In this document: piece after piece, positions 25,927 to 61,277 of the stretch
How positions within the stretch are numbered: position 1 is the stretch's first letter
Layout: each line of letters opens with the position of its first letter
NCBI GenBank assembly: GCA_041649635.1
Contig: JBAZMV010000007.1
Span: forward strand, 10,900-74,899
DNA: 64,000 bases
DNA from: Dehalococcoidia bacterium
Lineage (GTDB): Bacteria > Chloroflexota > Dehalococcoidia > E44-bin15
Reading direction: 5' to 3'
Program-made: the position numbers and the translations under genes
Notes under the pieces: model-generated
What the model was told of the DNA's origin: nothing
Seen by the model: only the letters and a program-made list of their open reading frames with translations
The model's database searches: none

Positions 25927-25940
25927 TTCGTCCTCCTTTC

Positions 25941-29635: not shown

Positions 29636-29655
29636 AATTTCCCCCTTTTCACAAA

Positions 29656-29685
29656 GATAACGGGGCGATTATCTTCCCCGTTATC
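29656..29685 (-). terminator. hairpin downstream of the SDR gene (minus strand), weak terminator candidate
   Basis: GATAACGGGG-(10 nt)-CCCCGTTATC. On the minus strand it is followed by TTTGTG. Confidence 0.35.
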
Positions 29686-29723
29686 CAGTTTACATTATTT
29701 TCTTCAATTTTCCAACGGTCTGC

Positions 29724-30740
29724 TTACTGCCGTTTCTTTTTCTTCTCCGCTTTCCGCCACTCAATATACTGCCGGCAGCCCTCCTCGATCGATATCTTGG
29801 GTTGCCATCCCAGCTCTTTCCGTGCTTTAGTGCTGTCGATATACATGCCATCCCTGACAAATTTAATGTCGGAACGCGTAAGGAACGGGGCATCCTCGGA
29901 TCTAATCAACCTCCCCCACATCTCCATAACCGCAGCCGAAGCGTACACAAGACCAAGCGGAATAACTATCTTTAATTCGGATTTCCCCGCAGCCTTAGCC
30001 ATAGCATTAACAAAATCACGATAGGTTACTACGCCCTCAGGTGAAATATTGTATATTTGCCCCCCGGCCTTTTCGTTTATCGCCGCCAGTATGACGCAAT
30101 CCGCAACATCGTGTACGTGTACTAATGCCGTCTTGGCCATAGCATTGCCCGGCAATACAGGGAACATCTTCACATAGCGATATATCCGGTCGGTAAGGAG
30201 TCTGCAGCGAGGGCCGTATACCATACAAGGCCTGACCACCGTAGCGTTTATCTTACCCTGCTTATGGTAATCAAGCACAGTTTGCTCTGCCCTGGCCTTT
30301 GCACAATCGTAGAACATCTCGCGGCTGGGCTTTTCGATATTCAGGTAAGGAGCGCTTTCATCCGCAGGTTTTTCAACACCTATTGCAGCATCACCCACAA
30401 CAGTGCCGGAACTGACGTAAACAAACTTCTTAACCCCTGCCGCAATGCTGGCATTAAGTATGTTCTCAGTTCCTTCAACGATACATGATTGAAAATCCTT
30501 CCACTGGCCCCACCCCGGCAAGACCCTGGCTGCAGCATGAATGACTACGTCCATGCCTTCGGCTGCAGCTACCAGACTATCGTAATCCTCCACATCACCG
30601 TAAACGATTTCGGCACTAGTTGTCTTCAGATGCTCTATGTTAGACGTCTTGCGCACCATGGCACGCACCTGATGTCCCTGCTGCGCCATTCGCTCGACAA
30701 GATGTCCGCCAAGCAATCCTGTTCCGCCTGTTATAAGCAC
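29724..30740 (-). CDS. extended-SDR NAD(P)-dependent oxidoreductase (epimerase/dehydratase / 3-beta-HSD / acyl-CoA-reductase-like)
   Basis: 338 aa. It has ITGGTGLLGGHL and a Y..AK catalytic pair (YDCAKARAE). Confidence 0.75.
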   Translation of the reverse strand: MLITGGTGLLGGHLVERMAQQGHQVRAMVRKTSNIEHLKTTSAEIVYGDVEDYDSLVAAAEGMDVVIHAAARVLPGWGQWKDFQSCIVEGTENILNASIAAGVKKFVYVSSGTVVGDAAIGVEKPADESAPYLNIEKPSREMFYDCAKARAEQTVLDYHKQGKINATVVRPCMVYGPRCRLLTDRIYRYVKMFPVLPGNAMAKTALVHVHDVADCVILAAINEKAGGQIYNISPEGVVTYRDFVNAMAKAAGKSELKIVIPLGLVYASAAVMEMWGRLIRSEDAPFLTRSDIKFVRDGMYIDSTKARKELGWQPKISIEEGCRQYIEWRKAEKKKKRQ

Positions 30741-30795
30741 TTTCGTAACGCCCTCCTAAACACAAGATTTGTTACTAAGCCTATAAATCACCATG

Positions 30796-32673
30796 CTATT
30801 GATAAAGCTTGCCCGCGAGATCACCAAGTCCCAGCCTGCTCAACGTCTCCTTAGTAGGACGCCCATCGGCAGCAAGCCCTCTAGCAGGATAGAATTCCTT
30901 TAACATCAGTTCCAGATTCGGCGCCGAGCCGGCTGCACCACCGTCAGTATTCGGAGTAAGTAACCGCTTGGGTAACATATCATCAGCAGCTGTAATACCC
31001 ATAAGATTGCATAATCCCCTCTTCATATGCCAGATCCGCTCTCCGCATTCCCTTATTTCCTTGAAAGCATAATCGAACCCTGTCACGGCATTTAAGATAC
31101 CGGCTATACTTTCTCCATTGAGCGTCTCAACCACCATATAGCAGATGGTCATTGCGTTATAGATAGCGCCCAAGTCCTGACCGTTCTTCACAATAATCGC
31201 CGCGCCCTCATTCTGCTTTGTGTTGACCCCGAAATTGATATCGACATCCGGCCAGGCAAAAATCCCTGTGCCGATACTGTAAGAGGGATCGCTGGTATGG
31301 CAGGCGCCTCTGGACCCCGTTGCATACGCAAGACCAAGCAGATAATTAGCCCTGGGATCGTGTGCGGGAACTTCCATGCCTTTTACTTCAATGGCAAATT
31401 CTGAAGCACCCTTCCCGATTTTCTCCGCAGCTCTCTTTGAACCTTCAGCCAGCAGATCACCAAAGCCCTGACGATTCGCGATCATTTCTATCACTTTGAC
31501 AACCGTTACATGATCTCCCCACTTGAACTCAACGCCTCCCGTATCTGCCGCAGTCAGGATGCCCTGTTCAAAACAGTCCATGACCATCGCTATAGTACTG
31601 CCACATGATATGACATCCATACCATAGTTATTACACAGATCATTCATCCTAATAACTGCAGCCATGTCCCCGATCATCAATGAGCTGCCCAATATAGCCG
31701 CCCCTTCATATTCAGGTCCCTCCGCTACTTCCCCCTGATAGGGCCCTTCAGGAATAGTCACATGCCGTTTACAGCCCACCATACAGCCATGGCATGAAGT
31801 GTTACCAATATAGAACGGCGGCCCGCTCAGTTTTCCTCCATCGATTTGCGAGGCAATAGCCATGTTATCGCCTTGAGCCCAGTTCTTCGCCGGCAGGTCT
31901 CCCATCATAGCGCTGATACCAAGAGCGGCGTTTGTGCCCTGCGCGCCGAGGACCTGACAGATAATGCTATCCTTCGCCTTTTGGAGGGCTTCTTTTCGCA
32001 ACTCGTTGAATTTCTCCTGATCGACTAAGCCTATCTTGCCGCTTCCGCGTACAACCACGGCCTTGAGCTTCTTAGATCCCATCACCGCACCCATGCCGCA
32101 TCTGCCGGCAAAATCCTTCTTGTCGTTGCAGACGCAGGCAAATCTGACGAGCTTCTCTCCGGCCACACCAATCGATAACACCTTAACCGGTTTTTTCGCT
32201 TCCTGCCGCTCATGCCGTTTCTTTAAAATATCATCTATTTCCTGCGTATTCTTGCCCCACAAATCCGAGGCATCTTTAATCTCGACTTTACCGTCTTCTA
32301 TTAATATATATACAGGCTTGTCCGAAGCTCCTTCAACTATAATGCCATCCCATCCGGCCTGTTTAAGTTCCGTTGCAAAAGTACCTCCGCTGTTGCTTTC
32401 CCCAAACATATTGGTGAGAGGCGACTTGGCACAGATTGAAAATCGAGCCCCGCCCGGCACGCTCAGTCCGCTTGTTGGCCCTGTTAATATGAAAAGGGTA
32501 TTTTGGGGAGATAGTGAATCGACCTTAGGATCAACCCTGTCGAACATAAGCTTTGCGCCTAACCCGCTGCCCCCGATAAATTTACGAATGATATCCTTGC
32601 TTACTGTGGAATTTGAAATAGAACCTTTACTGAGATCGATTTCCAGCATTTTACCCTCAAAACCTGCCATCAT
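30796..32673 (-). CDS. aldehyde:ferredoxin oxidoreductase (tungstopterin AOR family)
   Basis: 625 aa. The N-terminus has G..L.IDLS.G and GG.GLGAKL. It also has CHGCMVGCKR (Fe-S/pterin region), a GxD pattern, and AOR-length architecture. Confidence 0.88.
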   Translation of the reverse strand: MMAGFEGKMLEIDLSKGSISNSTVSKDIIRKFIGGSGLGAKLMFDRVDPKVDSLSPQNTLFILTGPTSGLSVPGGARFSICAKSPLTNMFGESNSGGTFATELKQAGWDGIIVEGASDKPVYILIEDGKVEIKDASDLWGKNTQEIDDILKKRHERQEAKKPVKVLSIGVAGEKLVRFACVCNDKKDFAGRCGMGAVMGSKKLKAVVVRGSGKIGLVDQEKFNELRKEALQKAKDSIICQVLGAQGTNAALGISAMMGDLPAKNWAQGDNMAIASQIDGGKLSGPPFYIGNTSCHGCMVGCKRHVTIPEGPYQGEVAEGPEYEGAAILGSSLMIGDMAAVIRMNDLCNNYGMDVISCGSTIAMVMDCFEQGILTAADTGGVEFKWGDHVTVVKVIEMIANRQGFGDLLAEGSKRAAEKIGKGASEFAIEVKGMEVPAHDPRANYLLGLAYATGSRGACHTSDPSYSIGTGIFAWPDVDINFGVNTKQNEGAAIIVKNGQDLGAIYNAMTICYMVVETLNGESIAGILNAVTGFDYAFKEIRECGERIWHMKRGLCNLMGITAADDMLPKRLLTPNTDGGAAGSAPNLELMLKEFYPARGLAADGRPTKETLSRLGLGDLAGKLYQ

Positions 32674-33149: not shown

Positions 33150-33572
33150 ATGGTAAAGTTTTTCACCAAGGAAATGTCAGACCAGACCGAGCAGATGATC
33201 AACACTGACGCCGCGATCAAGGCCAAGCTTAAAGGTGTAACCCTCAAATTCATCCTACTCGTAACCGATTGCCCCGGCAATGAAGATCGCCAAATGAAGA
33301 TAGGTTTCGATAACGGAAAACTAGTGGAAAATACCCTTGTTATCAAACCTGCCCCCAGTGATCTAAGAACTGAAACGCTTGACAAAGCATACGCAGCCAA
33401 AGTAGTCGGACCATATGAAGTAATGGTGCAAGTATCCACCAAGAAGCTGCCGATGCTTGCAGCCCTTGGCTCGATGCGCATAGAGGGTGATATGACAGCC
33501 TTGATAGCTAATATGACAGGTATGACCACCCTCTTGGACATCCAGGGCAGTCTGCCCGGTCTGGAGTTCTAG
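33150..33572 (+). CDS. SCP2 sterol/lipid-binding domain protein
   Basis: 140 aa with AGGGAGG upstream. The C-terminal block AALGSMRIEGDMTAL fits the SCP2 A..G.lk..Gd pattern. Confidence 0.6.
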   Translation: MVKFFTKEMSDQTEQMINTDAAIKAKLKGVTLKFILLVTDCPGNEDRQMKIGFDNGKLVENTLVIKPAPSDLRTETLDKAYAAKVVGPYEVMVQVSTKKLPMLAALGSMRIEGDMTALIANMTGMTTLLDIQGSLPGLEF

Positions 33573-33718: not shown

Positions 33719-35410
33719 ATGTCAACCGATATCAACACTAGAATATCAGGACCGTTTCAAGAGTTCCCGGATGTAAGCGAATGGGACGCCGTCATCATCG
33801 GCGGCGGACCCAACGGCCTTATCTGCGCCGCATACCTGGCCAAGGCGGGCATGAAGGTCTGCCTCGTCGAGCGCAGGTGGGAAGTCGGCGGCGGCCTCAG
33901 CACCGAAGAGATCCTTTTCCCATGCTACTACTCCAACGTGCATATCATATATCATATGATGGTCGACTACATGCCGGCCATCAAGGATTTCAATCTCGAT
34001 AAGCACGCCATCAGCTGGGTTAAACCAAACTCCCAGACCGCTATGGTCTTCGATGACGGCTCCTCTCTCCTGATGTCCAACATGGCTGCCGATACCAAGG
34101 ACTCAATGAGTAAATTCTCGCAGAAGGACTCCAATACCTACGGCCACATGATTCGTAAGTGGAACAAGATCACTAACGAGATCCTGGTCCCTTGCACCTA
34201 CCTGCCGGCCATCTCACCCATCGACTCGCAGATAATCCTGGAAAAAACCGAGGTCGGCAGTGAAATGCTCGAGATGATGGAGATGGCTCCGATCGATATC
34301 ATCAACGAGCACTTCGAGAACGACAAGATCCGCGCAATGCTCCTGTACATGACCTGCATGTGGGGCTGCGATCCCCGCGAGAGCGGCATGGGCTGGTATG
34401 TAGCCCTGCAGATGTCCCGGGGCATTAATAAGTGCTACTGCTACGGCAGCTCCCATAAGCTCGCCGGCGCCTTCGAGCGCGTTATAGTGGAAAACGGCGG
34501 CCTCGTCCTGGAAGCCGCCGCCGCCACCAAGATCATCATGGAAAACGGCAAGGCTGCCGGCATAGAACTGCAAGAAGGACGCACGCTCAAGGCCAAGGTC
34601 GTTATCTCCAGCCTCGACCCGCAGACCACCTTCCTCGACTTTGTCGGAGAGAAGAACCTGCCGGGAACGCTGGCTGAAGCCTTCAAGGGCTGGGTCTGGG
34701 ACAAGTGGAGCTTCCATACCCTGCACGTTGCTTCCATGCAGCCTCCCGTCTACAAGAAACTGGATAAGGACGGCAAGCCGGTCAGGGGCTATGACCCGTG
34801 GGTCAACGAAGCCTTTATGACGATCTTCGGCGTCGAGGGCGAAGACCAGTTGCTGGCGCACTGGGATAACGTGGTCGCAGGTAAGATCGACCTGAAGAAC
34901 TTCTGCGGACATGCCACTTGCGAAACCATCTTCGATCCCCACCTGACCAGATGGCCGGGCAGACACGTGTCTTTCTTCCAGATGCACGCCCCTTATAATA
35001 TCGAGGGCGGCTGGGCCAAGCGCGAGCCGGAACTCAACCAGGCCATACTCGATAAGTGGGAAAAGGTGGCTCCGGGCTTCACCAAGAACAATAATATACA
35101 AAAAACGAACGGAGAGACTCCGGAGGATATCGAAATACGCTTCCCGAACATGCGCAAGGGCTCCATTAAGCACGGAGACTATATCCCAACACAGATGCTT
35201 ACCAACCGCCCGCATCCGGATTGCTCGGCCCATAAGACCCCGATAGAAGGGCTCTACCTGTGCGGCGCCTCAGTCTACCCGGGAGGCACCCTGCTGGGCG
35301 GTCCGGGTTACCTCGCGGCCAACAGGGTAGCCGAGGACATGGGAGTTAAAAAATGGTGGAAGCCTACCGCTGAAATGGAGAAGTTTACTAAAACCTACCT
35401 TGAAAAGTAA
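33719..35410 (+). CDS. phytoene-desaturase-family (COG1233, CrtI/CtmAB-like) FAD-dependent oxidoreductase, copy 1
   Basis: 563 aa. It has [38 protein letters not shown]. The C-terminus LYLCGASVYPGG..GGPGY..A ends in KKWWKPT, as in copy 3. Confidence 0.8.
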   Translation: MSTDINTRISGPFQEFPDVSEWDAVIIGGGPNGLICAAYLAKAGMKVCLVERRWEVGGGLSTEEILFPCYYSNVHIIYHMMVDYMPAIKDFNLDKHAISWVKPNSQTAMVFDDGSSLLMSNMAADTKDSMSKFSQKDSNTYGHMIRKWNKITNEILVPCTYLPAISPIDSQIILEKTEVGSEMLEMMEMAPIDIINEHFENDKIRAMLLYMTCMWGCDPRESGMGWYVALQMSRGINKCYCYGSSHKLAGAFERVIVENGGLVLEAAAATKIIMENGKAAGIELQEGRTLKAKVVISSLDPQTTFLDFVGEKNLPGTLAEAFKGWVWDKWSFHTLHVASMQPPVYKKLDKDGKPVRGYDPWVNEAFMTIFGVEGEDQLLAHWDNVVAGKIDLKNFCGHATCETIFDPHLTRWPGRHVSFFQMHAPYNIEGGWAKREPELNQAILDKWEKVAPGFTKNNNIQKTNGETPEDIEIRFPNMRKGSIKHGDYIPTQMLTNRPHPDCSAHKTPIEGLYLCGASVYPGGTLLGGPGYLAANRVAEDMGVKKWWKPTAEMEKFTKTYLEK

Positions 35411-35642: not shown

Positions 35643-36800
35643 ATGCCTGAAAGAATAGGGATTGTGGCTGTAGCGCAGACCAAATATCATCCCAACAGGG
35701 CCGAGGTAAAGGAAGGGGAGATGGCCTATGAGGCCATCAAGCAGGTTCTCCAGGAAACAGGTCTAAAGTATGTCAACGACGGCAGCGGCATCGACGCTGC
35801 CGTTACTTGTTCCCAGGACTTCTGGGACGGCAGAACCATATCCAGCCTCAATGTAGCATCATTCGTAGGCACGCACTTCCGCTGCGAAGAGAAGGTGGCA
35901 TCGGACGGCATAAACGCAGTGTTCTATGCCATGATGCACATACTCTCGGGAGAACATGATACTCTAATCGTCACAACCCACTGCAAGGAATCACAGACTT
36001 CACCGAGTATAATCGAGAATCACTCCTTCGAGCCGGTATTAATGAGAGGACTTGGATTGGATTTCCTCGGCGCAGCGGCGCTCCAGGCCAATCGTTATAT
36101 GAACAAATACAAGATCACTCCGGAACAATGCGCCAAGGTTGTCGTCAAGAACCGCGGCAACGCAAAGAACAACCCCTACGCGCAGGCACCCATGAGCCTC
36201 ACTGTTAAAGATGTGCTGAACTCTAGGATGCTGGCCGACCCTATCCATGAACTGGATGCAAAGCCGGTATCCGACGGAGCATGTGTTATGATTATGGCTC
36301 GTGAGGAAAAGGCCAAGAAGCTCTGTAAGAATCCCGTCTGGATAACCGGCGTCAGTAACTGCTACGAAGCCCACTATCTGGGAGACCGCGATCTGGCTGA
36401 CTGCAAAGCACTGACGAAAGCGGCGAAACAAGCCTACAAGATGGCTGGTATCAACAATCCTTTACAAGAAATAGACGTAGCGGAGATTTCAGAGAAATAC
36501 TCCTACGAAGAGTTACTGTGGCTGGAGGGGCTCGGCTTATGCGAGCGCGGCGGCGGCGGTAAGATGATAGACAGCGGCGCGACCAAGATGGACGGCAAAC
36601 TGCCGGTCAACCCATCGGGCGGATGCCTTTCCGGCAATCCCACAGAGGTGGCAGGCATGACCCGCGTCGTCGAGGCGGTTCTCCAGTTGCGCGGCGAGGC
36701 AGGCTCCAGGCAAGTACCGGACGCTAAAGTCGCATTAGCCCACGGTACAACGGGCATCTGCGGACAACTACAGACCGTAATGATCCTGAGCAACAGCTAA
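35643..36800 (+). CDS. thiolase-fold (SCP-x-like) protein apparently lacking the nucleophilic Cys
   Basis: 385 aa. VNPSGGCLSGNP and a GICG C-terminal region are present. The segment aligned to VENLCCAGQEA of the paralogue reads CEEKVASDGINA, with Ala at the Cys position in my hand alignment. Confidence 0.75.
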   Translation: MPERIGIVAVAQTKYHPNRAEVKEGEMAYEAIKQVLQETGLKYVNDGSGIDAAVTCSQDFWDGRTISSLNVASFVGTHFRCEEKVASDGINAVFYAMMHILSGEHDTLIVTTHCKESQTSPSIIENHSFEPVLMRGLGLDFLGAAALQANRYMNKYKITPEQCAKVVVKNRGNAKNNPYAQAPMSLTVKDVLNSRMLADPIHELDAKPVSDGACVMIMAREEKAKKLCKNPVWITGVSNCYEAHYLGDRDLADCKALTKAAKQAYKMAGINNPLQEIDVAEISEKYSYEELLWLEGLGLCERGGGGKMIDSGATKMDGKLPVNPSGGCLSGNPTEVAGMTRVVEAVLQLRGEAGSRQVPDAKVALAHGTTGICGQLQTVMILSNS

Positions 36801-36817
36801 TCGGAGGTATTTAAGAT

Positions 36818-37972
36818 ATGGCCAATAGAGTGGCGATAGTAGGTGTAGGTCGGTCGACACAGGCGGCCAGGCGGCCTGAGGTCAACGACGCGGAGATGAT
36901 CAATGAAGCCGTAAGAGCGGCGCTTGAAGACGCTCAGATCGATATTAAGAAAGTACAGGCAGTTCTTACCAACAGCATAGATGGTTTCGATAATTTTTAT
37001 CTTGGCGACTGCCTCCTTGTCGATGGAAGCGGAGCGTATATGAAATCCGGCATGAAGTTACACACCGGAGGCACGGTCGGCTCCACCGGCGCTATAGCTG
37101 CGTTTAACATGGTAGCTTCAGGTATGTTCGATATAGTCCTTACCATAGGCCATCAGAAACAGGAACGCGGCAACTCGATGGGCACGCTCTGCGCCGCCGC
37201 CCCGGGCGAGGTGCGCGAGTACGTACAGGGAGCCATCGGAGCGTTCGCGCAGGCCGCAGTTGAATATATGCAAAATACTGACGCCAAACTGGAGCACGCG
37301 GCAATGGTGCGCCTGAAGGCTGATAAAAATGCCTGCCGCAACCCGTACGCGCATCTGCGTCTTGGCCTCAAGTCGATAGAAGACGTAGCGAAGTCGCCGA
37401 TACTTATCTGGCCTTTGCGTCTTCTAGACTTCTGCCCGCAATCATGCGGCGCAGCCGCGCTCATAGTGGCCTCCGAGAAGGTAGCTAAAAAGATATCCAA
37501 GAAGCCGGTTTGGGTTGCGGACCACGAGACCGTTCACGAGCTGCAAAGCGAGGTGGTATTCGGCGGAGCTGAGGAGAAATCGCAGCAGATAGCGGCCAGA
37601 CATATATATAAGCGAAACGGTATCACCAACCCGGCTAAAGATATAGACTGCTTTGAAGTATACGAGCCCAGCAGTTGGGAAGAAATGTACCTGTACGAGC
37701 ATTTCTTTATAACCGAGCATAACACGGGATGGAAACTGATAGAAAAAGGCATGACCGAACTGGAAGGACCAATACCAGTGAATCCATCAGGCGGCGTGCT
37801 GGCCACTAACGCCATCGGCGCTACAGCCATGCTGCGCATCGGAGAGGCCGCCCTCCAGATCCGCGGAGACGCCGGAGAGCACCAATGCACAAAGGATATC
37901 AAAACCACGTTGTCTTCAGGCCTTGGAGGAACAAACTGGACAACGCTGGTTCTACTCAAGAGATCACTCTAA
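36818..37972 (+). CDS. thiolase-fold (SCP-x-like) protein apparently lacking the nucleophilic Cys, second subunit
   Basis: 384 aa. VNPSGGVLATNAIGATA is present. The equivalent nucleophile segment reads HTGGTVGSTGAIAAF and contains no Cys. Confidence 0.75.
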   Translation: MANRVAIVGVGRSTQAARRPEVNDAEMINEAVRAALEDAQIDIKKVQAVLTNSIDGFDNFYLGDCLLVDGSGAYMKSGMKLHTGGTVGSTGAIAAFNMVASGMFDIVLTIGHQKQERGNSMGTLCAAAPGEVREYVQGAIGAFAQAAVEYMQNTDAKLEHAAMVRLKADKNACRNPYAHLRLGLKSIEDVAKSPILIWPLRLLDFCPQSCGAAALIVASEKVAKKISKKPVWVADHETVHELQSEVVFGGAEEKSQQIAARHIYKRNGITNPAKDIDCFEVYEPSSWEEMYLYEHFFITEHNTGWKLIEKGMTELEGPIPVNPSGGVLATNAIGATAMLRIGEAALQIRGDAGEHQCTKDIKTTLSSGLGGTNWTTLVLLKRSL

Positions 37973-37989
37973 GTCAAGGAGAAATGCGC

Positions 37990-38475
37990 ATGGCAGAAGA
38001 GAAAAAAGAGGAATTGATCGGTGTAGAGTTCTTCTCCAAGATACCGTATAACTGGTCCATGGGCCCGTACGTCGGCACCGTCTTTACGGAGATGAAAGAA
38101 AATAAGAGGATATGGGGCATCAGGTGCCCCAACTGCAAAAAGCTGCTGTTCCCGCCCGAGGCGATGTGCGGCTACTGCTTCACCGAGTTCACTCATGATA
38201 ACTGGGAGGAGATCGGGGACGAAGGAACTGTAGTGCAGTTCACTAAGGCTGGGATGCCCATCTTCGATATCCGCAAAGGAACTTTCGCGTTTTCCGAGCG
38301 CCCTCTGGCCAATATACAATTCGATACGGGACCTTACATCATGCACTGGCTGGAGGAAAAGGACATGGAGAAGCTGCACCTCGGCATGAGGGTCAAGGCT
38401 GTATGGCGCGAGCAGGGACGCGGCCGTGGATATGAAGACATCATGTATTTCCGCGCTATTGAGGAGAAGAAGTGA
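37990..38475 (+). CDS. DUF35 zinc-ribbon/OB-fold protein
   Basis: It has a CPNCKKLLFPPEAMCGYC ribbon followed by an OB-fold-like region. The ATG at 37990 has AAGGAG 8 nt upstream. Confidence 0.8.
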   Translation: MAEEKKEELIGVEFFSKIPYNWSMGPYVGTVFTEMKENKRIWGIRCPNCKKLLFPPEAMCGYCFTEFTHDNWEEIGDEGTVVQFTKAGMPIFDIRKGTFAFSERPLANIQFDTGPYIMHWLEEKDMEKLHLGMRVKAVWREQGRGRGYEDIMYFRAIEEKK

Positions 38476-38969
38476 TGACTACAACACCAATGAAGCCAAC
38501 TACACCGGTTATTTTTTCGGGGCACATGGTATATACCCACAAGTTTGAGGCTGGCAGGACCGGGAGCAGATTTCTCAGAGAGCTGCGCGACGGTAAGAAG
38601 ATAATGGGATTGAAATGCCCCAACTGTAACAAAGTCCATGTTCCACCAAGATCGACTTGCAAAGAGTGCTTCTCACAGCTTGATAAGTGGGTTGAGGTCG
38701 GCAGTGAAGGCAAATTGCTCACCTATACCGTTCTTCGCGTTCCCCGCGACGCCGAGAAGGACGTATTAAAGAGACAGCTTCCCGTCGCCTACGGCATAAT
38801 AAAGCTGGACGGCGCCGACACCGGCTTTGTGCATATGTTGGGCGAGATCGACCTGGACAATATCAAGATAGGCATGCGGGTTAAGGCGGTATTCAGAGAG
38901 GATGAACGCACCGGCAACATCCTCGATATCAATTATTTCAAACCGGTATCTAAGTCACGAAAGAGGTGA
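38472..38969 (+). CDS. DUF35 zinc-ribbon/OB-fold protein, second copy
   Basis: It has a CPNCNKVHVPPRSTCKEC ribbon. GTGATG overlaps the upstream stop, so the start is at 38472 or 38475. Confidence 0.8.
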   Translation: MMTTTPMKPTTPVIFSGHMVYTHKFEAGRTGSRFLRELRDGKKIMGLKCPNCNKVHVPPRSTCKECFSQLDKWVEVGSEGKLLTYTVLRVPRDAEKDVLKRQLPVAYGIIKLDGADTGFVHMLGEIDLDNIKIGMRVKAVFREDERTGNILDINYFKPVSKSRKR

Positions 38970-38973
38970 TACA

Positions 38974-40191
38974 TTGACAAGTCATCAGGAAGGCGCGCTG
39001 ACAGGATATCGAATACTGGATTTGACCGACAGCAAAGGTGCTTACTGCGCAAGGACAATGGGAGACCTTGGAGCAGACGTAATTAAAATTGAGAGCCCTC
39101 AAGGAGACACGGGACGTTCTATCCCTCCGTTTTTCAACGACGATCCCCATCCCGAGAAAAGCTTCTTCTACATATACCGCAACGCAAGCAAACGCGGCAT
39201 CACCCTTAATATCGAAACCGAACAAGGTATAAATCTCTTCAAAAAGCTGGCTGAGAAAGCCGACGTGGTTGTAGAGAACTTCGGCCCGGCTTACATGGAC
39301 GACCTTGGGCTTGGATACGAAGACATTAAGAAGATTAATCCAAATATCGTCATGGCCAGCTTCACGGAATTTGGCACGGACGGCCCGTATAAAAATTATA
39401 AGGGTTCGAACATCGTCGACTTCGCTCTCAGCGGCGTGATGATAACAAGCGGCTATCCCGGCAAAGCGCCGACACTGCTGCCCGGCATGCCCGCCTACGA
39501 CGCCGCATCGCTGATAGCCGTTGTTGAGATAATAGCAGCGCTGTACGCCCGCCCGGTGATAGGCGGCGGGCAGAAGATAGATGCTTCGGTACACGAGATC
39601 GCGCGCACCGGCCTCTACCCCTGGTCGGTTCCGATTTATTCTCACTCTCTAACCCCGGGAGGCCCGTTGCCCATGCCGGAGTCTCGATTAGGCGACTCGA
39701 TTTATCCGGTATACCCGACCAAGGATGGGCACATTCGAGTAATCGCACTTACGCCGCGGCAATGGCAGGCCCTGGTGAAAGTGCTCGGCAGCCCCGAGGT
39801 ACTGTCGCTTCCTGAATGGGAAAGTTTTATCTACCGTATCGGTAACTCCCAGGACTTATTGGCCATAATGCTTGAGTTTACAACACAGTTCACTCAGATG
39901 GAGATCTGGGAAAAAGGATTCCAGGAGGGAGTTCCTATCGCTCCGATATATGATATACCCACGTTCATAAACAGCCCGGATGCCAATGCCAGAAATTATT
40001 TCACCAAGGTCACACATCCGGTTATCGGCGAAGGTCTCTACCCGGGACCGCCCTACAGATGGACGGCAACTCAACCAAAGATACAATCATGTGCCCCTCT
40101 TCTGGGACAGCACAATGAGGAGATATACTGTAATGAACTGGGCTTATCAAAAGAGGATTTGGTAATACTCAAGGGTGCCGGAGTGATATAG
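38974..40191 (+). CDS. family III CoA-transferase, subunit 1 of an adjacent pair
   Basis: TTG start with AAGAGG 7 nt upstream. It has ILDLTD..GAYC...MGDLGADVIKIE and GSNIVDF..SG. Confidence 0.82.
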   Translation: MTSHQEGALTGYRILDLTDSKGAYCARTMGDLGADVIKIESPQGDTGRSIPPFFNDDPHPEKSFFYIYRNASKRGITLNIETEQGINLFKKLAEKADVVVENFGPAYMDDLGLGYEDIKKINPNIVMASFTEFGTDGPYKNYKGSNIVDFALSGVMITSGYPGKAPTLLPGMPAYDAASLIAVVEIIAALYARPVIGGGQKIDASVHEIARTGLYPWSVPIYSHSLTPGGPLPMPESRLGDSIYPVYPTKDGHIRVIALTPRQWQALVKVLGSPEVLSLPEWESFIYRIGNSQDLLAIMLEFTTQFTQMEIWEKGFQEGVPIAPIYDIPTFINSPDANARNYFTKVTHPVIGEGLYPGPPYRWTATQPKIQSCAPLLGQHNEEIYCNELGLSKEDLVILKGAGVI

Positions 40192-40198: not shown

Positions 40199-41425
40199 AT
40201 GAATATGGCACAAACCGCTTTACAAGACATATTAGTTCTCGACTTCGGCACCGGCGTGGCCGTCCCGGACGGCATCAGGTTACTCGCGGAACTCGGTGCG
40301 AAAGTTATTAAAATCGAATCGAGCAAGAACCTCGATTTCGTGAGGACAATAGCGGCGGAGAAGAACAGCAGCGCCGGCTTTAATGAAACCAACCGAAACA
40401 AACTTAGCATAGGCCTGGACCTGCAAACCGCGAAGGGTAAGGATATTTTAAAAAAACTGATAGAGAAGGCGGACGTCTTCGCGGAGAACCAGCGCGGCGG
40501 GGTAGCCAAGAGCCTGGGCTTCGATTACGAATCGGTACGCAAGATAAAGCCCGACATCATATATTTAAGCAGCCAGGGATTCGGCGGAGGCGGGCCGCAC
40601 AGCGACTACCCGGCATACGGCCCTATGCTGTCGGCAGGCTCAGGCATGCTCTCTATCTGGAAGCATCCCGACGACCCGTATCCCGTCGGTTCCAACTCCC
40701 CTCTGCCAGACCACATGGCGAGCAAGCAGTGCGCCATAGGAATAATGGCGGCTCTCGATTACAGACGCCGCACCGGCAAAGGACAGTATATAGATATGGC
40801 GCAGACGGAAGTAGCCGCATCCCTTATCGGCGAATCGTATCTCGACTACACTATCAACAAACGCGTACCTGAACCGAAGGGCAACCGCTGTCCCTATGCA
40901 GCCCCTCACGGAGCTTATCCCTGCACCGGCATGGACAACTGGGTTGCTATAAGCGTTTTCACCGACGAGGAGTGGCACAGTTTCACAAAAGCGATAGGGC
41001 ATCAGGAATGGGACGAAGACCCTAAATTCGCAACACTATTGGAGAGGCTTAAAAACGTCGACGAGCTGGATAAGCTCGTCGCAGAATGGACAACCCCTCT
41101 CGATGCGTGGGATGTACAGGAATTGTTGCAGAAAGCCGGTGTACCGGCTGGTGTCGTACAACGAGCGCCTGATACGATGAAAGACCCGCAAATCCTGCAC
41201 GACAATGCCTTGGTTGAGCTGGACCATCCCATTGTAGGGAAACGGTTGTATCCCAACGTAGCTCTAAAGCTGTCAGGGACGCCAGCGCTAGCCAGCACTC
41301 CCGCTCCATTGCTGGGACAACATACGGATGAGATTTGTCGCGAACTTCTTCACATGAGCGACGGTGATATAGAGAATCTCAAGAAAGAGGGTGTACTGGA
41401 AAGTCCAGACATCCAACCAAAATAA
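40199..41425 (+). CDS. family III CoA-transferase, subunit 2 of an adjacent pair
   Basis: 408 aa. It has VLDFGTGVAVP...LLAELGAKVIKIES and LGQHTDEI near the C-terminus. Confidence 0.82.
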   Translation: MNMAQTALQDILVLDFGTGVAVPDGIRLLAELGAKVIKIESSKNLDFVRTIAAEKNSSAGFNETNRNKLSIGLDLQTAKGKDILKKLIEKADVFAENQRGGVAKSLGFDYESVRKIKPDIIYLSSQGFGGGGPHSDYPAYGPMLSAGSGMLSIWKHPDDPYPVGSNSPLPDHMASKQCAIGIMAALDYRRRTGKGQYIDMAQTEVAASLIGESYLDYTINKRVPEPKGNRCPYAAPHGAYPCTGMDNWVAISVFTDEEWHSFTKAIGHQEWDEDPKFATLLERLKNVDELDKLVAEWTTPLDAWDVQELLQKAGVPAGVVQRAPDTMKDPQILHDNALVELDHPIVGKRLYPNVALKLSGTPALASTPAPLLGQHTDEICRELLHMSDGDIENLKKEGVLESPDIQPK

Positions 41426-41447
41426 AATTAGGAAAGGAGTTGAACTA

Positions 41448-42536
41448 ATGAAGGCTGCTGTTTTGTATGAGGCCGGAGCTCCATTGAAGATTGAGGATGT
41501 GACGCTCGATGAGCCCGGGGCAAACGAGATACTCGTCAAGCTTGAAGCGACGGGAGTCTGCCATTCAGACCTCCACTTCATGAAGGGCGAGATGCCCGCG
41601 GCCATGCCCGTGATTCCCGGACACGAGGGAGCAGGCGTTGTAGAGAAGGTGGGGCCGGGCGTAACGACCGTAAAGCCGGGCGATCATGTCATCATGATGG
41701 TCGCTTTCAGCTGCGGCAAATGTCGTTTCTGTTATGAGGGCCGGCCCACGATGTGCGTGGAGAATCTGCCTATTCAAATGATGGCCACACTGCCGTACGG
41801 CCAGATGCGCGCACGCAAGGGAGACCAGCAGATTCACCACCTGTTCGGACTGGCCTGCTACGCCGAGAAAGTGGTAGTGCACGAGAGATCGGCGGTGAAG
41901 GTCAGAGACGATGCGCCCCTTGATGTAGTGTGTCTGCTCGGATGCGGCGCAAGCACCGGTATCGGCACTGCGATCAACACCACAAAAGTGAAAGCCGGAG
42001 AGACAATAGCTATTTTCGGCTGCGGAGGTGTGGGACTCGCCGCTGTCATGGGCGCCAAGCTTGCCGGAGCTAAAGTAATAGCAATCGACGCCCTGGATAA
42101 CAAACTTGAGATGGCTAAACAACTCGGTGCCGACCATGTTATCAACGCAAAGAACGACGATCCCCAGTTAAAGATTTTTGAAATCAACGGCGGAGGAGTT
42201 GACTACGCTCTCGAGTTCATCGGTAATGTAGATATAATGGTAAAAGCACTCGGCTCAATCCGCCCCGGCGGTGTGTTCGTCGTTTCAGGCATGGCTCCTA
42301 TTACCAGCATGCTGACCATCGCACCGTTCGAATTCTTACTGGGCAAGACGATAACCGGCGCGGTTCAGGGCGATATCATCCCGCAGATCGACATACCAAA
42401 GTATGTTGACCTTTACATGAATGGCAAACTCCCCATAGATAAGCTGATAACAAAGACCTACAAGCTGGATCAGATCAACGAGGCCTTTGAAGCGATGAAA
42501 AAGGGAGAGGTAATTCGCAGCGTAATAAAGTTCTAA
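41448..42536 (+). CDS. zinc-dependent alcohol dehydrogenase (MDR family)
   Basis: It has MKAAVL, GVCHSDLH, GHEGAGVV, the structural-Zn Cys cluster CGKCRFC, and the GCGGVG NAD motif. Confidence 0.88.
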   Translation: MKAAVLYEAGAPLKIEDVTLDEPGANEILVKLEATGVCHSDLHFMKGEMPAAMPVIPGHEGAGVVEKVGPGVTTVKPGDHVIMMVAFSCGKCRFCYEGRPTMCVENLPIQMMATLPYGQMRARKGDQQIHHLFGLACYAEKVVVHERSAVKVRDDAPLDVVCLLGCGASTGIGTAINTTKVKAGETIAIFGCGGVGLAAVMGAKLAGAKVIAIDALDNKLEMAKQLGADHVINAKNDDPQLKIFEINGGGVDYALEFIGNVDIMVKALGSIRPGGVFVVSGMAPITSMLTIAPFEFLLGKTITGAVQGDIIPQIDIPKYVDLYMNGKLPIDKLITKTYKLDQINEAFEAMKKGEVIRSVIKF

Positions 42537-42575: not shown

Positions 42576-44315
42576 ATGGCTGAAGAGACGTTTGATGTTG
42601 TAATCGTAGGAGGAGGTAACAAGGCGCTGTTCCTCGCCATGTACCTCATCAAGTACGCTAACCTGAGCGTAGGAATCTATGAAAGGCGGCATGAGATCGG
42701 CGGGTGTCTGGCTACGGAGGAGATCTCCGCGCCGGGTTTCCGCGGCAACACACATGCAACAATCCAGCTGCCGTTCTACTACACGCCGCTGTGGCGCGAC
42801 TTCCCTGAGATATGGGAGTACGGCTGCAGGCTGGAACAACACCTGGTGGCCAGCGGCGGATCGTTCTTGAAGGATCAGAACTGTCTCGCTATTTATAGCG
42901 AGAAGTACGATCCCGACCAGACCAGGACCGCCGAACAAATCGCCCGTTTCTCAAAAGAGGATGCGGAGAAGTGGCTCAGACTGAGGAAGTACTGGATGAA
43001 TCCGGCGGCACAGGCCGTACAGATCGATATGATGTACAAGCCTGCCGAGATCAGAGCCGCCGACCCCAAGGTATTTGAGAGACAGCTGACACAGTATCCC
43101 TTTATGATAGAAGTAGGGCAGGGCGTGAACCCGGACGCGCTGATCCTTGCTGCTCCTCATATTCACAATGTTCAGGAGCTCTGGGAGAGCCCGGAGATGC
43201 AGTACTGTAACATCAGATTCGTGCTGTCAGCGGCTATGGACCCGAGCCAGCCGGGCGCCGGCGCATGGACGTTCGGATTCGCCGCCATGCAGCCGTCGAT
43301 TGCGTTTATACCAGGCGGCACGCATCAGGTAGCGCACGCGGCGCATAAGATACTCTGCCGCGACGGATGCAAATTCTTCCTCGGACAGGAGGTCAAGAAG
43401 TGCATCATAGAGAACGCCGAGTGCAAGGGTATCGAGCTTGTAGACGGCACCAAGATCAAGGCCAACAAGTTCGTCGTCAGTACGTTGAGCCCGATGCAGT
43501 TGGCCTTCGACCTCATCGGCGAGGAATACCTGGACCCGGCTTTCAAGAAGCGGATCAAGCTGATTGAAACGGAGTTCGGCTGTCTTATGTGGTACACATT
43601 CGCTTGTCATGAGGCGCCGAAGTATAACGTGGCCTCGTTCAACCCCGATATCAACGACTCATTCTGGCTCGGTCTCGCCGAAGATCCCGATCCATACCAC
43701 GTGGTGCGTGAGGCTTATTACGGAAGACTGGGCATGTGGCCGCCGACCAAGGACTGGTGTCCGACTGTCTGGAGCCACAGCATGGTGGACCCGCTCTACG
43801 CGGCGCCCGGCAAGCACATCGCCAATAACGAGCAGCTTGGCCCGCCGGCTACCGCTCATACCGAGGACGAATGGCTGGATATCAAGAAGTGGTACGCCGA
43901 GGAACTGATTAAGATATGGGAGAAACATGCCCCCAATATGAACTGGGACAATATAATAGGCGTTGACATGAATACGCCTTACGATAACCTTAGGATGAAG
44001 AACACGGGACCCAACGGCACCATGTCCCTTATCGACCGAGTATCGCACCAGTGCGACGACAAGCGGCCGATACCGGAGCTGGCCAACCACAGGACCCCGA
44101 TAAAGAACCTCTACGCCACCGGCGCTGCGTGGCACCTGGGCGCAAACTCAGGCGCTACCGAGTCCTACAACTGCTATCAGATCATAGCCAAGGACCTCGG
44201 ACTGCCCGGACCGTGGCAGCAAGGCGAAGATGCTGATACGCTGTACCAGACCTGGCTGGAGGTACTTAAGAAGACGAAAGAATCCGGGCTTACAAGCCCC
44301 CTGGCAAAGAAGTAG
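42576..44315 (+). CDS. phytoene-desaturase-family (CrtI/CtmAB-like) FAD-dependent oxidoreductase, copy 2 (divergent subtype)
   Basis: 579 aa. It has FDVVIVGGGNKALFLAMYL...YERRHEIGGC and the C-terminal LYATGAAWHLG. Confidence 0.75.
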   Translation: MAEETFDVVIVGGGNKALFLAMYLIKYANLSVGIYERRHEIGGCLATEEISAPGFRGNTHATIQLPFYYTPLWRDFPEIWEYGCRLEQHLVASGGSFLKDQNCLAIYSEKYDPDQTRTAEQIARFSKEDAEKWLRLRKYWMNPAAQAVQIDMMYKPAEIRAADPKVFERQLTQYPFMIEVGQGVNPDALILAAPHIHNVQELWESPEMQYCNIRFVLSAAMDPSQPGAGAWTFGFAAMQPSIAFIPGGTHQVAHAAHKILCRDGCKFFLGQEVKKCIIENAECKGIELVDGTKIKANKFVVSTLSPMQLAFDLIGEEYLDPAFKKRIKLIETEFGCLMWYTFACHEAPKYNVASFNPDINDSFWLGLAEDPDPYHVVREAYYGRLGMWPPTKDWCPTVWSHSMVDPLYAAPGKHIANNEQLGPPATAHTEDEWLDIKKWYAEELIKIWEKHAPNMNWDNIIGVDMNTPYDNLRMKNTGPNGTMSLIDRVSHQCDDKRPIPELANHRTPIKNLYATGAAWHLGANSGATESYNCYQIIAKDLGLPGPWQQGEDADTLYQTWLEVLKKTKESGLTSPLAKK

Positions 44316-44327: not shown

Positions 44328-45116
44328 ATGCCTGTAAATAAGATAGTGTCTAGCTTCGATAAGGCGGTAGCCGATATACCGGACGGCGCTACAGTAATGA
44401 TAGGCGGCTTCGGCACCGTATCAAGCACTCCTACCATGCTCCTGGAGGCTTTGGCCCGCAAGGGAGTCAAGAACCTCACTACCGTATCCAACTCCTGCGG
44501 TTTCGGCAAGGATGTCTGGAAGCTGCTGGGATACAAGTTCCCGGAGGATATCGACGTTCTTGTGCGCAACAACTGCATAAAGAAAGCGATAGCCTCGGCC
44601 CCGGTCAGCGCTGTATACCAGAACAACTTTGAGAAGAAACTCCGCGCCGGGGAAGTCGAGTTGGAGATGGTTCCGCAGGGCACACTGGCGGAACGCATCA
44701 GGGCAGCCAAAGCGGGACTCGGAGGAATTTACACGCCGGTAGGAGTAGGTACGGTTGTCGAGACAGGCAAAGAAGTAAAAACAATCGACGGCAGGAAATA
44801 TGTACTGGAACTGCCGATAAAGGCCGACTTCGCCGTAATCAAAGCGCACAAGGGCGATCGCTGGGGTAATCTGACATATAGATACACCTCGCGAACCTTC
44901 AACGGCACAATGGCCGGCGCGGCCAAGGTCACCATAGCGGAGGTTGACGAGATCGTAGAGCTGGGCGAGCTGAAGCCGGACGAGATACATACTCCCGGCA
45001 TCTATGTGGATCGAGTGGTTAAGAGGCCAGCGGAGTACGTGGAAGCGGACGGAGGAGAGATCAGTAAGGAAGCCCAGGAGTCCCACGATAGGTTCATGGA
45101 AAGAAAGAGCGCGTAA
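44328..45116 (+). CDS. family I (3-oxoacid/glutaconate type) CoA-transferase subunit A
   Basis: 262 aa. It has DGATVMIGGFG, E..PQGTLAERIRA and GG.YTP.GVGT. Confidence 0.85.
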   Translation: MPVNKIVSSFDKAVADIPDGATVMIGGFGTVSSTPTMLLEALARKGVKNLTTVSNSCGFGKDVWKLLGYKFPEDIDVLVRNNCIKKAIASAPVSAVYQNNFEKKLRAGEVELEMVPQGTLAERIRAAKAGLGGIYTPVGVGTVVETGKEVKTIDGRKYVLELPIKADFAVIKAHKGDRWGNLTYRYTSRTFNGTMAGAAKVTIAEVDEIVELGELKPDEIHTPGIYVDRVVKRPAEYVEADGGEISKEAQESHDRFMERKSA

Positions 45117-45127: not shown

Positions 45128-45799
45128 ATGGAAGAGAAATTCAAACTTGATAGAGAGACCATGGCCCTCCGCGTAGCCAAGGAATTCCAGGATGGCAACT
45201 ATGTCAACCTAGGGATCGGGATACCTGTGCTGGCTGCGAACTATATACCCGCCGGCAGGGAAGTCATCTTCCAGAGCGAGAACGGCGTACTCGGCTTCGG
45301 CGAGATCACCAATGTTGGAGAAGGCGATCAGGACTTGCAGAATGCCGGAGGACAGACCGTCAGAGTCCAGCCCGGCATGAGCTGCTTCGACCACGCCGAA
45401 TCGTTCACTATGATCCGCGGCGGGCACCTTGACATCAGCGTCATGGGAGGCTTCCAGGTCTCGGAGAAGGGCGACCTAGCAAACTATATGGTCCCCGAGA
45501 GGAAGATAGGCACTATCGGAGGTGCCATGGATCTGGCTGTAGGAGCCAAGAAATTGATAGTAGTCATGAACCATGTCACCAAAGACGGCAAACCAAGAGT
45601 AGTTAAACAATGCACCTATCCCATCACAGCTATAGAAAGTGTATCCTTGCTGGTTACGGATATAGCCGTGATTGAAGTAACCGATAAGGGATTGGTGCTT
45701 AAAGAAGTTGCTCCAGGTTGGACGCCCGAGGAGGTTCAGAAGCTGACCGAACCCACGCTCATCGTCGATCCTGGTTGCCACGATATAGAGTTAATGTAA
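45128..45799 (+). CDS. family I CoA-transferase subunit B
   Basis: 223 aa. It has NLGIGIP, QSENGVLG (catalytic Glu motif) and GGAMDL. Confidence 0.85.
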   Translation: MEEKFKLDRETMALRVAKEFQDGNYVNLGIGIPVLAANYIPAGREVIFQSENGVLGFGEITNVGEGDQDLQNAGGQTVRVQPGMSCFDHAESFTMIRGGHLDISVMGGFQVSEKGDLANYMVPERKIGTIGGAMDLAVGAKKLIVVMNHVTKDGKPRVVKQCTYPITAIESVSLLVTDIAVIEVTDKGLVLKEVAPGWTPEEVQKLTEPTLIVDPGCHDIELM

Positions 45800-51301: not shown

Positions 51302-51314
51302 AGAAGGACTGGAT

Positions 51315-61275: not shown

Positions 61276-61277
61276 GA

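Follow-up and report, generated by a model that had tools for sequence, protein, structure and literature searches.

The 64,000-nucleotide stretch of contig JBAZMV010000007.1 analysed here (the window), from an uncultured Dehalococcoidia bacterium, contains four co-oriented genes at positions 35643-38969 that encode two thiolase-fold proteins, T1 and T2, followed by two DUF35 proteins, D1 and D2. Judged by their residues, neither T1 nor T2 can be an ordinary thiolase, because the nucleophilic cysteine and both catalytic histidines are missing. By sequence kinship, the four-gene module appears to be a distant new addition to the heteromeric, cysteine-less thiolase-fold lyases with DUF35 partners of the Ltp3-Ltp4 type – a class known from genetics – and on balance it probably acts as a C-C lyase (retro-aldolase) on a 3-hydroxyacyl-CoA, not as a thiolase. 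The genes are:

35643-36800, + strand: T1, 385 aa, cysteine-less thiolase fold of the Ltp4-like (PRK07937-like) type; Pfam Thiolase_C_1, 1e-39
36818-37972, + strand: T2, 384 aa, cysteine-less thiolase fold of the Ltp3-like (PRK08313-like) type; Pfam Thiolase_C_1, 4.7e-22
37990-38475, + strand: D1, 161-aa DUF35 protein, zinc ribbon plus OB fold; Pfam OB_ChsH2_C, 7.9e-8, and zf-ChsH2, 7.3e-7
38475-38969, + strand: D2, 164-aa DUF35 protein, zinc ribbon plus OB fold; Pfam OB_ChsH2_C, 2.4e-13, and zf-ChsH2, 4.1e-7

The four genes are translationally coupled. The T1 stop codon and the T2 ATG are separated by 17 nt containing GGAGG; T2 ends with a TAA at 37972, and a second 17-nt spacer, with AAGGAG, precedes D1; the D1 TGA (38473-38475) and the D2 ATG (38475) overlap as TGATG. 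The best start for D1 is the ATG at 37990, with AAGGAG 8 nt upstream, and a longer reading frame from 37885 would overlap T2. Both D1 and D2 exceed the Pfam cutoffs for zf-ChsH2 and OB_ChsH2_C and have a four-cysteine CxxC...CxxC pattern (C46xxC49...C60xxC63 in D1), and the original prediction of two DUF35 genes tightly coupled behind T1 and T2 is thus borne out. Among PDB entries, D1 matches PhlB, 3irb and the archaeal DUF35 protein 6esq_E, and D2 matches 3irb (5.7e-11), 6esq_E (5.5e-10), the DUF35 part of Shy (9myr_B, 1.5e-8) and that of ChsH2 (0.025). T1 and T2 are real genes, since they are kept at 55-96% identity in hundreds of proteins from metagenomes and metagenome-assembled genomes (MAGs); the nearest relative is on MAG contig JBAZEO010000001.1, with a T2 identity of 96%. 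AlphaFold2 monomers built from 27-sequence alignments, with low confidence in the catalytic loops, are usable for the fold only in the case of T2 (pLDDT 64.7, pTM 0.72) and poor for T1 (pLDDT 45.9). In Foldseek comparisons with the PDB, the T2 model reaches TM-scores of ~0.7-0.77 to SCP2 thiolase, BbsB, Ltp2 and Sal; SCP2-type thiolases, BbsB, PhlC, TbSLP, Ltp2 and Sal all lie at TM ~0.7, and the fold is therefore not discriminating.

The thiolase nucleophile lies at the N-terminus of helix N-alpha3, in the CxS loop, and its register in T1 and T2 was established with HMMER against solved structures, with MAFFT using either 109 diverse representatives or reference proteins, and with hmmalign on a profile of 24 thiolases that retain the Cys, HDCF and GHP motifs. 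None of the alignments, including that to the 24-sequence profile of Cys-His-Cys thiolases, places a cysteine at this position in either protein. In T2 it is Gly85 by every method (HMMER against BbsB, MAFFT with both sets, and hmmalign), and this glycine is invariant in 121 of 121 aligned sequences, the set used for each protein being the window protein plus 120 homologues. For T1, ungapped alignment anchored on the following helix gives Ala86, HMMER and hmmalign give Val85, and MAFFT gives Gly89. Position 86 is variable in the T1 family (A in 87, T in 22 and C in 8 of the 121, also S and N), which is not as expected of a nucleophile. Cys81 of T1 was considered as a displaced nucleophile and rejected for lack of conservation: at this position, five residues before Ala86, relatives mostly have D, H or T.

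Both histidine motifs have been replaced as well. The HDCF loop reads S283-E-K-Y in T1 and Y282-E-P-S in T2, putting Ser283 and Tyr282 at the histidine position, and the GHP motif reads G-N332-P in T1 and T-N331-A in T2, with Asn332 and Asn331 in place of the histidine. Two cysteine-containing paralogues in the same window, at 8082-9329 (+) and 24733-25926 (-), keep the Cys, HDCF and GHP. The original prediction had described T1 and T2 as thiolase-fold proteins without the nucleophilic cysteine, with a VNPSGG loop retained in both, Gly (or no Cys) at the nucleophile position of T2 and Ala at that of T1. The first three of these points are confirmed, with the loss now seen to extend to both catalytic histidines; the alanine of T1 is recovered by the ungapped alignment and not in the HMMER, hmmalign and MAFFT registers.

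The altered loops are themselves conserved. Across the 121 T2 sequences, G85, Y282-E-P-S, N331 and N373-W374 are all invariant, and the T1 set shows little or no variation at E82, K84, D88, N91, C373 and Q375. Among the T1 substitutes, V85 is conserved, S283 is replaced by Cys in 12 of 121 and N332 by K or H in 7, and C373 is invariant. Cys373 lies in the Cbeta4-Cbeta5 loop, which in classical thiolases bears the acid/base cysteine; in wider T1-like proteins its position is often Cys, also Ala or Gly.

The only established activity of cysteine-less, DUF35-associated SCP2-thiolase-fold proteins is retro-aldol cleavage, by Ltp2-ChsH2 and Sal-Shy (PMC12329534). The same study equates the loop-2 motifs HDCF of SCP2 thiolases, YDHF of Ltp2, YDCY of Sal and YDCF of TbSLP; the first loop-2 tyrosine is essential in both aldolases (Ltp2 Tyr294, Sal Tyr302), Tyr344 serves as the second catalytic residue of Ltp2 and Cys304 as that of Sal, and Sal has a glycine at the thiolase nucleophile position (PMC12329534). 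As an Ltp2-family proxy in our alignments we used the protein encoded at 14440-15666 of related locus L008, which scores 554 bits with the Ltp2-type model PRK07855 (cutoff 469) and has an FYDAF motif and a loop-3 tyrosine. Tyr282 of T2 shares a column with the histidine of HDCF and with the tyrosine of FYDAF, so that only T2 keeps the catalytic tyrosine equivalent to Ltp2 Tyr294 and Sal Tyr302, T1 having Ser283. At the position of the second Ltp2 tyrosine, Tyr344, the PRK07855 protein has Tyr, T2 has Asn331/Ala332 and T1 has Asn332. With respect to the Sal dyad, T2 has Gly85 and Tyr282 with Pro284 at the Cys304 position, an equivalence drawn through PMC12329534 and not through direct alignment with Sal. 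Because both known catalytic acids are missing, a complete aldolase mechanism is not readable from the T2 sequence; T1, with a serine at the tyrosine position, cannot use the known mechanism and looks like a degenerate partner.

The nearest known system is apparently Ltp3-Ltp4/Rv3521, and not Ltp2 or BbsAB. The best NCBIfam model for T2 is PRK08313 (321 bits, cutoff 514), and those for T1 are PRK06066 (263 bits) and PRK08313 (259 bits), both below cutoff; PRK07937 gives 188 bits for T1 (cutoff 419) and 71 bits for T2. PRK07855, which does recognise Dehalococcoidia members such as the L008 proxy, gives T1 139 and T2 107 bits. With the BbsB and BbsA models (NF053628 and NF053627), T1 and T2 score 127 and 104 bits for BbsB (cutoff 750) and D2 scores 18 bits for BbsA (cutoff 250). 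A crude neighbour-joining tree, computed from distances and without support values, places the PRK08313 proteins as the sister group of T2 and its relatives and the actinobacterial PRK07937 proteins as that of T1 and its relatives; the cysteine-containing thiolases form a separate group.

Searching annotated plasmid and chromosome records revealed, in Streptomyces clavuligerus and Nocardia farcinica, an operon with the order tandem DUF35 protein (~340 aa), PRK07937 protein (346-354 aa), PRK08313 protein (388-390 aa), in which both thiolase-like genes are well above their NCBIfam cutoffs. This order matches that of Rv3521-ltp4 (Rv3522)-ltp3 (Rv3523) in Mycobacterium tuberculosis (PMC6429209), and one member of the N. 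farcinica PRK08313 cluster carries the M. tuberculosis-style name 'lipid carrier protein or keto acyl-CoA thiolase'. Two reviews describe Ltp3-Ltp4 as a heteromeric aldol-lyase, assigned from genetics, whose substrates are C24-branched sterol side chains that have been carboxylated and hydrated and are cut at the C24-C25 bond (PMC6678751; PMC6593523), and one of them proposes cleavage at a branched tertiary carbinol (PMC6678751).

The module and Ltp3-Ltp4/Rv3521 have in common two adjacent paralogous cysteine-less thiolase-fold genes and two DUF35 domains. T2 shares with PRK08313 proteins the motifs TxG[ST]VG, Y-x-P-[FS]-x-W and SGGVL-x-x-N-[PA]-IGA, and T1 shares with PRK07937 proteins a shortened 'xDGxxA' loop and a [ST]G-x-[CA]-x-Q loop. 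They differ in that identity is only ~35% for T2 and ~31-33% for T1, and in that Rv3521 is one tandem DUF35 protein encoded before the thiolase-like genes whereas the window has two separate DUF35 genes after them. PRK07937 proteins also keep a histidine in loop 2 (that of S. clavuligerus in loop 3 too), where T1 has Ser and Asn, and the setting of Ltp3-Ltp4 is the cholesterol regulon, whereas in the window the host is anaerobic and CrtI-like flavoproteins, an aldehyde:ferredoxin oxidoreductase (AOR) and CoA-transferases adjoin the module.

With Ltp2-ChsH2, the steroid C3 side-chain aldolase (PDB 6ok1), the module shares an SCP2-thiolase fold without the nucleophilic cysteine, a DUF35 partner, the Tyr294 equivalent in T2 and, in many related operons, a hydratase step before the aldolase. 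Ltp2 is, however, a homodimer with two catalytic tyrosines, and its DUF35 partner domain is fused to the MaoC hydratase ChsH2, whereas D1 and D2 are separate. The proposed likeness to the Ltp2 active site thus holds for the first tyrosine, in T2, and fails for the second, with T1 lacking both. Placement in the Ltp2 type itself, as the original prediction had it, is wrong, given the low PRK07855 scores, the missing second tyrosine and the grouping with the PRK07937/PRK08313 pair; moreover, the module is distinct from the Ltp2 family because related Dehalococcoidia operons carry separate PRK07855-family genes alongside it.

Sal-Shy, the bile-acid C5 side-chain aldolase (PDB 9myr), resembles the module in the glycine at the nucleophile position, the tyrosine first in the loop-2 motif and the DUF35 cap. 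Sal Gln352 would correspond to T2 Asn331, as an amide at the GHP-histidine position, if the ~50-residue spacing after the loop-2 tyrosine is followed in the unaligned Sal sequence. The similarity is nevertheless weak (T2 against 9myr_A, 5e-11), and Sal differs in being homodimeric, in its essential Cys304 (YDCY, against YEPS in T2) and in having its DUF35 domain as part of the hydratase Shy. BbsAB (benzoylsuccinyl-CoA thiolase, 7pxp) and the archaeal thiolase/HMGCS/DUF35 complex (6esq) share the thiolase sub-fold and the DUF35 association and rank high among the PDB matches of T1 and T2 in both sequence and fold, but they keep the catalytic cysteine and histidine and carry out Claisen-type chemistry. 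The BbsB catalytic cysteine aligns with T2 Gly85, and BbsAB, offered earlier as an analogue, is a poor one on this account.

Matches to PhlC, PhlB and MucABC subunits among the PDB hits of T1, T2, D1 and D2 raise the question of whether the module performs some other reaction of the thiolase superfamily, such as a biosynthetic aldol or Claisen condensation, decarboxylation of a malonyl- or carboxy-acyl-CoA, or C-acyl transfer of the PhlABC/MucABC type. TbSLP has weak malonyl-CoA decarboxylase activity (PMC12329534), and the substrate proposed for Ltp3-Ltp4 carries a carboxylated branch (PMC6678751). PhlABC and MucABC, however, combine a KAS III-like PhlA with a cysteine-containing PhlC and with PhlB, and the module shares with them only the DUF35 resemblance: it contains no KAS III-like gene, and T1 and T2 lack the cysteine of the PhlC type, on which PhlC depends (it was crystallised as a C88S variant). 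Sal did not decarboxylate malonyl-CoA (PMC12329534), and the neighbourhoods of the module are catabolic, with acyl-CoA dehydrogenases, hydratases and CoA-transferases. We give explanations of this kind the least credence of those considered here.

The module is widespread and its composition is nearly constant. T2 relatives occur in at least 358 GTDB species-level genomes, and in the best 79 loci examined – almost all from Dehalococcoidia MAGs, with a few from Desulfobacterota – T1, T2, D1 and D2 are in identical order in 76-79 of 79. Some genomes have two copies, and the 384-aa T2 type of the window is a minor paralogue ~58% identical to the main 389-aa type. The genes most often found beside the module are:

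36 loci: acyl-CoA dehydrogenases (ACADs)
31 loci: CrtI-like flavoproteins, second most frequent
~20 loci: 3-oxoacid CoA-transferase A/B, above NCBIfam cutoffs
20 loci: CaiB-type CoA-transferases
20 loci: crotonase-type hydratases (ECH)
18 loci: MaoC hydratase pairs
15 loci: Zn-dependent alcohol dehydrogenases

In ~17 loci the gene immediately before T1 encodes a hydratase, and in ~12 the genes immediately after D2 are ACAD-MaoN-MaoC. Dehydrogenases of the 3HCDH type are present in 3 of 88 loci and short-chain dehydrogenases/reductases (SDRs) in 1 of 88; the whole window contains no 3HCDH-type gene, and its only SDR is at 32-865, ~35 kb from the module. These neighbourhoods fit a hydratase-to-aldolase route, and the same pattern has served as an argument that Sterolibacterium denitrificans cleaves side chains aldolytically (PMC6678751).

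Outside these groups, plasmid pBB1 of Cupriavidus necator N-1 carries the full module (L093, 11635-15072), with T1 47% and T2 42% identical and both DUF35 genes present; its T2 motif is YEPC. The flanking genes encode two acyl-CoA synthetases, a fused double ACAD, FadL, a Mo-hydroxylase, an ECH, an SDR and a cysteine-containing thiolase, and the synthetases and Mo-hydroxylase match the logic of aldolytic side-chain cleavage, in which an aldehyde is oxidised to an acid and re-activated. On the C. necator H16 chromosome only the thiolase-like pair was seen (Q0KDA7, Q0KDA6); the C. necator pair is annotated as acetyl-CoA acetyltransferase, among the organism's many 'beta-ketothiolase homologues'. 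Plasmid pLP1 of R. qingshengii has two ACAD genes, MaoN, MaoC, a degenerate 304-aa thiolase-like gene, a T2-like gene, a DUF35 gene and a CaiB gene, in this order.

A second thiolase-like pair, each member with its own DUF35, stands beside the module at 14440-17709 of L008 and also in L015, L017, L028, L032 and L059, accompanied by PimC/PimD-like ACADs, a MaoC pair and HGD-D genes; in L008 the pair includes the Ltp2-family proxy, whose FYDAF and loop-3 tyrosines make up the two-tyrosine signature of Ltp2. The arrangement resembles a cassette of the steroid-side-chain type in an anaerobe.

The degenerate T1-like partner of R. qingshengii, together with the loss of all canonical catalytic residues, would suit a module of catalytically dead pseudo-thiolases that form with DUF35 a scaffold, or bind or channel acyl-CoA, for the neighbouring hydratases, dehydrogenases and CoA-transferases. 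Studies of other complexes portray DUF35 as a molecular staple or scaffold (PMC12329534; PMC10398937), and the cysteine-less thiolase-like proteins TbSLP and ST0096 (= 4yzo) are without established activity. Set against this, the former catalytic loops keep invariant polar residues over identity ranges of 50-96% (Y282, E283, N331 and N373-W374 of T2; E82, K84, D88, C373 and Q375 of T1), and the tyrosine kept in T2 is the exact residue that is essential in both characterised aldolases. The four-gene module also stays constant as its partners change from locus to locus (ECH, MaoC or none), and we regard a purely structural role as very unlikely.

The 3-oxoacid CoA-transferase neighbours, sometimes placed directly after D2 (L007, L043), would instead supply a substrate for an unusual thiolase, in which a non-canonical nucleophile or direct attack by CoA cleaves a 3-oxoacyl-CoA – acetoacetyl-CoA downstream of acetone carboxylase, for example. 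The module has acetone carboxylase genes next to it in L001, L003-L005, L006 and L055, a cysteine occupies position 86 in the 8 of 121 T1 relatives noted above, that of L001 included, and the invariant Cys373 of T1 sits in the Cbeta4-Cbeta5 loop. Acetone carboxylase is adjacent in only ~5% of loci, however, and cysteine-containing thiolases are encoded elsewhere in the window. Both activating histidines are lost in T1 and T2, and every T2 has Gly at the nucleophile position, which in T1 varies (A, T, C, S, N). To our knowledge, no cysteine-less thiolase-fold protein has been demonstrated to perform thiolysis, and this explanation seems to us quite unlikely.

In the window itself, the genes around the module comprise:

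30796-32673, - strand: tungsten-type AOR; Pfam AFOR_N, 3.4e-79, and AFOR_C, 2.5e-119
33719-35410, + strand: CrtI/CrtO-like FAD flavoprotein, directly upstream of T1; NCBIfam CrtO and crtI_fam far below cutoff
38902-40191 and 40199-41425, + strand: family III (CaiB-type) CoA-transferases; Pfam CoA_transf_3, 5.8e-82 and 2.4e-105
41391-42536, + strand: Zn-dependent alcohol dehydrogenase; Pfam ADH_N and ADH_zinc_N
42576-44315, 45848-47479 and 47625-49112: further CrtI/CrtO-like copies, far below carotenoid-enzyme cutoffs
44328-45116 and 45128-45799, + strand: 3-oxoacid CoA-transferase subunits A and B; pcaI_scoA_fam, 267 bits (cutoff 128.5), and pcaJ_scoB_fam, 290 bits (cutoff 243.6)

The CaiB pair probably forms a heteromeric CoA-transferase that activates or re-activates the acid, and such a pair also follows D2 directly in the window-type loci L011-L013, L022, L051, L058 and L072. 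The AOR arrangement is repeated in the closest genome, L010. A role of the CrtI-like flavoproteins in desaturation or anaerobic hydroxylation of an isoprenoid-like substrate is possible; a phytoene-dehydrogenase-like gene is listed in the S. denitrificans side-chain cluster (PMC6678751).

From the residue states, conservation, gene order and kinship to PRK07937/PRK08313 pairs described above, we infer a complex, a reaction, residue roles and a class of substrate. T1, T2, D1 and D2 would form one hetero-oligomeric enzyme with a T1-T2 heterodimer core of the SCP2/archaeal thiolase fold, each thiolase-fold subunit being capped by its own DUF35 zinc-ribbon/OB protein. A hydratase would make the 3-hydroxyacyl-CoA, and retro-aldol cleavage to acetyl-CoA (or propionyl-CoA) and an aldehyde or ketone would replace the dehydrogenase and thiolase steps of beta-oxidation. 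T2 would be the catalytic subunit, with Tyr282 deprotonating the beta-hydroxyl in the manner of Ltp2 Tyr294 and Sal Tyr302 and Gly85 in the place of the nucleophilic cysteine, and T1 a degenerate partner that shapes a larger pocket; alternatively, the invariant Cys373 of T1 might indicate an additional site of another kind. If the product is an aldehyde, the AOR could oxidise it, with re-activation by the CaiB pair; a ketone would need carboxylation and the 3-oxoacid CoA-transferase. The module would belong to an anaerobic catabolic gene set for a hydrophobic, probably branched carboxylic acid, made up of the CrtI-like flavoproteins, alcohol dehydrogenase, AOR, CaiB-type CoA-transferases and 3-oxoacid CoA-transferase. 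The retro-aldolase of two thiolase-fold and two DUF35 subunits put forward in the original prediction survives in part: the thiolysis residues are lost, the DUF35 partners are real and the neighbourhoods are rich in hydratases, but the two thiolase-fold subunits are not equivalent, since only T2 keeps the tyrosine.

Several observations weigh against assignment as a retro-aldolase of the Ltp3-Ltp4 type. T1 and T2 fall below the curated cutoff of every NCBIfam model, and T2 has neither of the known catalytic acids (Pro284 at Sal Cys304, Asn331/Ala332 at Ltp2 Tyr344). The AlphaFold models are weak (pLDDT ~65 for T2, ~46 for T1). The function of Ltp3-Ltp4 itself rests on genetics only, and the equation of PRK08313/PRK07937 proteins with Ltp3/Ltp4 is drawn from gene order, protein sizes and source names, not from the M. 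tuberculosis sequences. The frequent 3-oxoacid CoA-transferase neighbour implies a 3-oxoacyl-CoA in the pathway, which needs a thiolase, and the Zn-dependent alcohol dehydrogenase of 15 loci could be an unrecognised hydroxyacyl-CoA dehydrogenase.

A more specific form of the retro-aldolase proposal, and one we think unlikely, is that the module removes beta-methyl branches without prior carboxylation, as a tertiary-alcohol retro-aldolase. A 3-methyl-2-enoyl-CoA would be hydrated and cleaved to acetyl-CoA and a methyl ketone; an acetone-carboxylase-type enzyme would then carboxylate the ketone, and 3-oxoacid CoA-transferase would re-activate the product. The original prediction's idea of a beta-methyl-branched (tertiary-alcohol) substrate gains plausibility by likeness to the tertiary-carbinol cleavage proposed for Ltp3-Ltp4, and is compatible with the AtuA-family and CrtI-like genes of the window and with the occasional ketone carboxylase and 3-oxoacid CoA-transferase neighbours. 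It is disfavoured by the adjacent ACADs, which are PimC/PimD-like and not isovaleryl-CoA dehydrogenase-like.

Acetone-carboxylase-type genes (Hydantoinase A and B, Acetone_carb_G) adjoin the module and 3-oxoacid CoA-transferase in a few genomes (L001 15658-21158, L003 1-1541, L006 12345-15803, and L055), and in the T1 homologue of L001 position 86 is Cys and the GHP position is Lys. A leucine/isovalerate route via acetone, prompted by the acetone carboxylase and a Peripla_BP_6 protein in L001, is unsupported because of the type of the adjacent ACADs, because the binding protein is only weakly UrtA-like and because of the rarity of adjacent acetone carboxylase. A literature search on Dehalococcoidia, acetone carboxylase and thiolase found nothing relevant.

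Other parts of the window encode further thiolase-related proteins. At 6649-9329 (+) and 24733-27395 (-), an HMG-CoA-synthase-like protein with a C-terminal DUF35 fusion (485 and 484 aa) is paired with a cysteine-containing archaeal-type thiolase, and these pairs seem to be a bacterial counterpart, in fused form, of the archaeal thiolase/HMGCS/DUF35 complex (6esq). The HMGCS part scores 228 bits with PRK04262, just under the cutoff of 244, and the thiolase 477 bits with PRK06157 (cutoff 403); the same pairing is seen close to the module in 6 related loci. The first pair is followed by an AtuA-family protein (9379-10779, +) and by an EchA19-like enoyl-CoA hydratase and an ACAD (11177-13190, +). 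An HMGL-like (4-hydroxy-2-oxovalerate aldolase-like) protein and a KDPG-type aldolase are encoded at 19980-21576 (-). Redox enzymes of an anaerobe type flank the cluster, at 28709-32673 (-), where the AOR is accompanied by a 4Fe-4S protein and an NAD-epimerase/3beta-HSD-like protein, and at 49521-51911 (+), with a three-subunit 2-oxoacid:ferredoxin oxidoreductase; a KatG catalase-peroxidase is encoded at 14638-16833, although the genome otherwise looks like that of an anaerobe. A conserved 140-aa open reading frame (33150-33572, +) precedes the first CrtI-like gene and is found also in L010, L014 and L064; by eye it resembled an SCP2-type carrier, a candidate assignment that was dropped with no Pfam or PDB match. 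The segment at 54828-63624 encodes an S8 peptidase of the secreted type (1738 aa) that contains InlB B-repeats and an fn3 domain, followed by tyrosine integrases at 60253-61275 and 62563-63624 that may mark a mobile-element boundary.

Wherever they are annotated, proteins of the T1 and T2 types bear the name 'acetyl-CoA acetyltransferase' or 'thiolase family protein'. This annotation is wrong about the chemistry, because T1 and T2 cannot be thiolases, and metabolic reconstructions of Dehalococcoidia that count such proteins as beta-oxidation thiolases are wrong at that step. The position of the module in related operons, beside Ltp2-family genes, heteromeric PimC/PimD-like ACADs and MaoC pairs, and its distribution across these many genomes, suggest that abundant subsurface Chloroflexota carry steroid-side-chain-style aldolytic degradation of bulky or branched lipids. 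If it is true, branch removal by the module would be a widespread anaerobic route for isoprenoid- or sterol-type chains in subsurface Dehalococcoidia, unlike either canonical beta-oxidation or the Atu/Liu carboxylation route. C. necator N-1, a cultured and genetically tractable aerobe with the full module, offers a workable system for the Ltp3-Ltp4-type class of heteromeric aldolases; the model strain H16 has the core thiolase-like pair. Work on this system could show by what means C-C cleavage is catalysed in a thiolase fold that has only one known aldolase residue.

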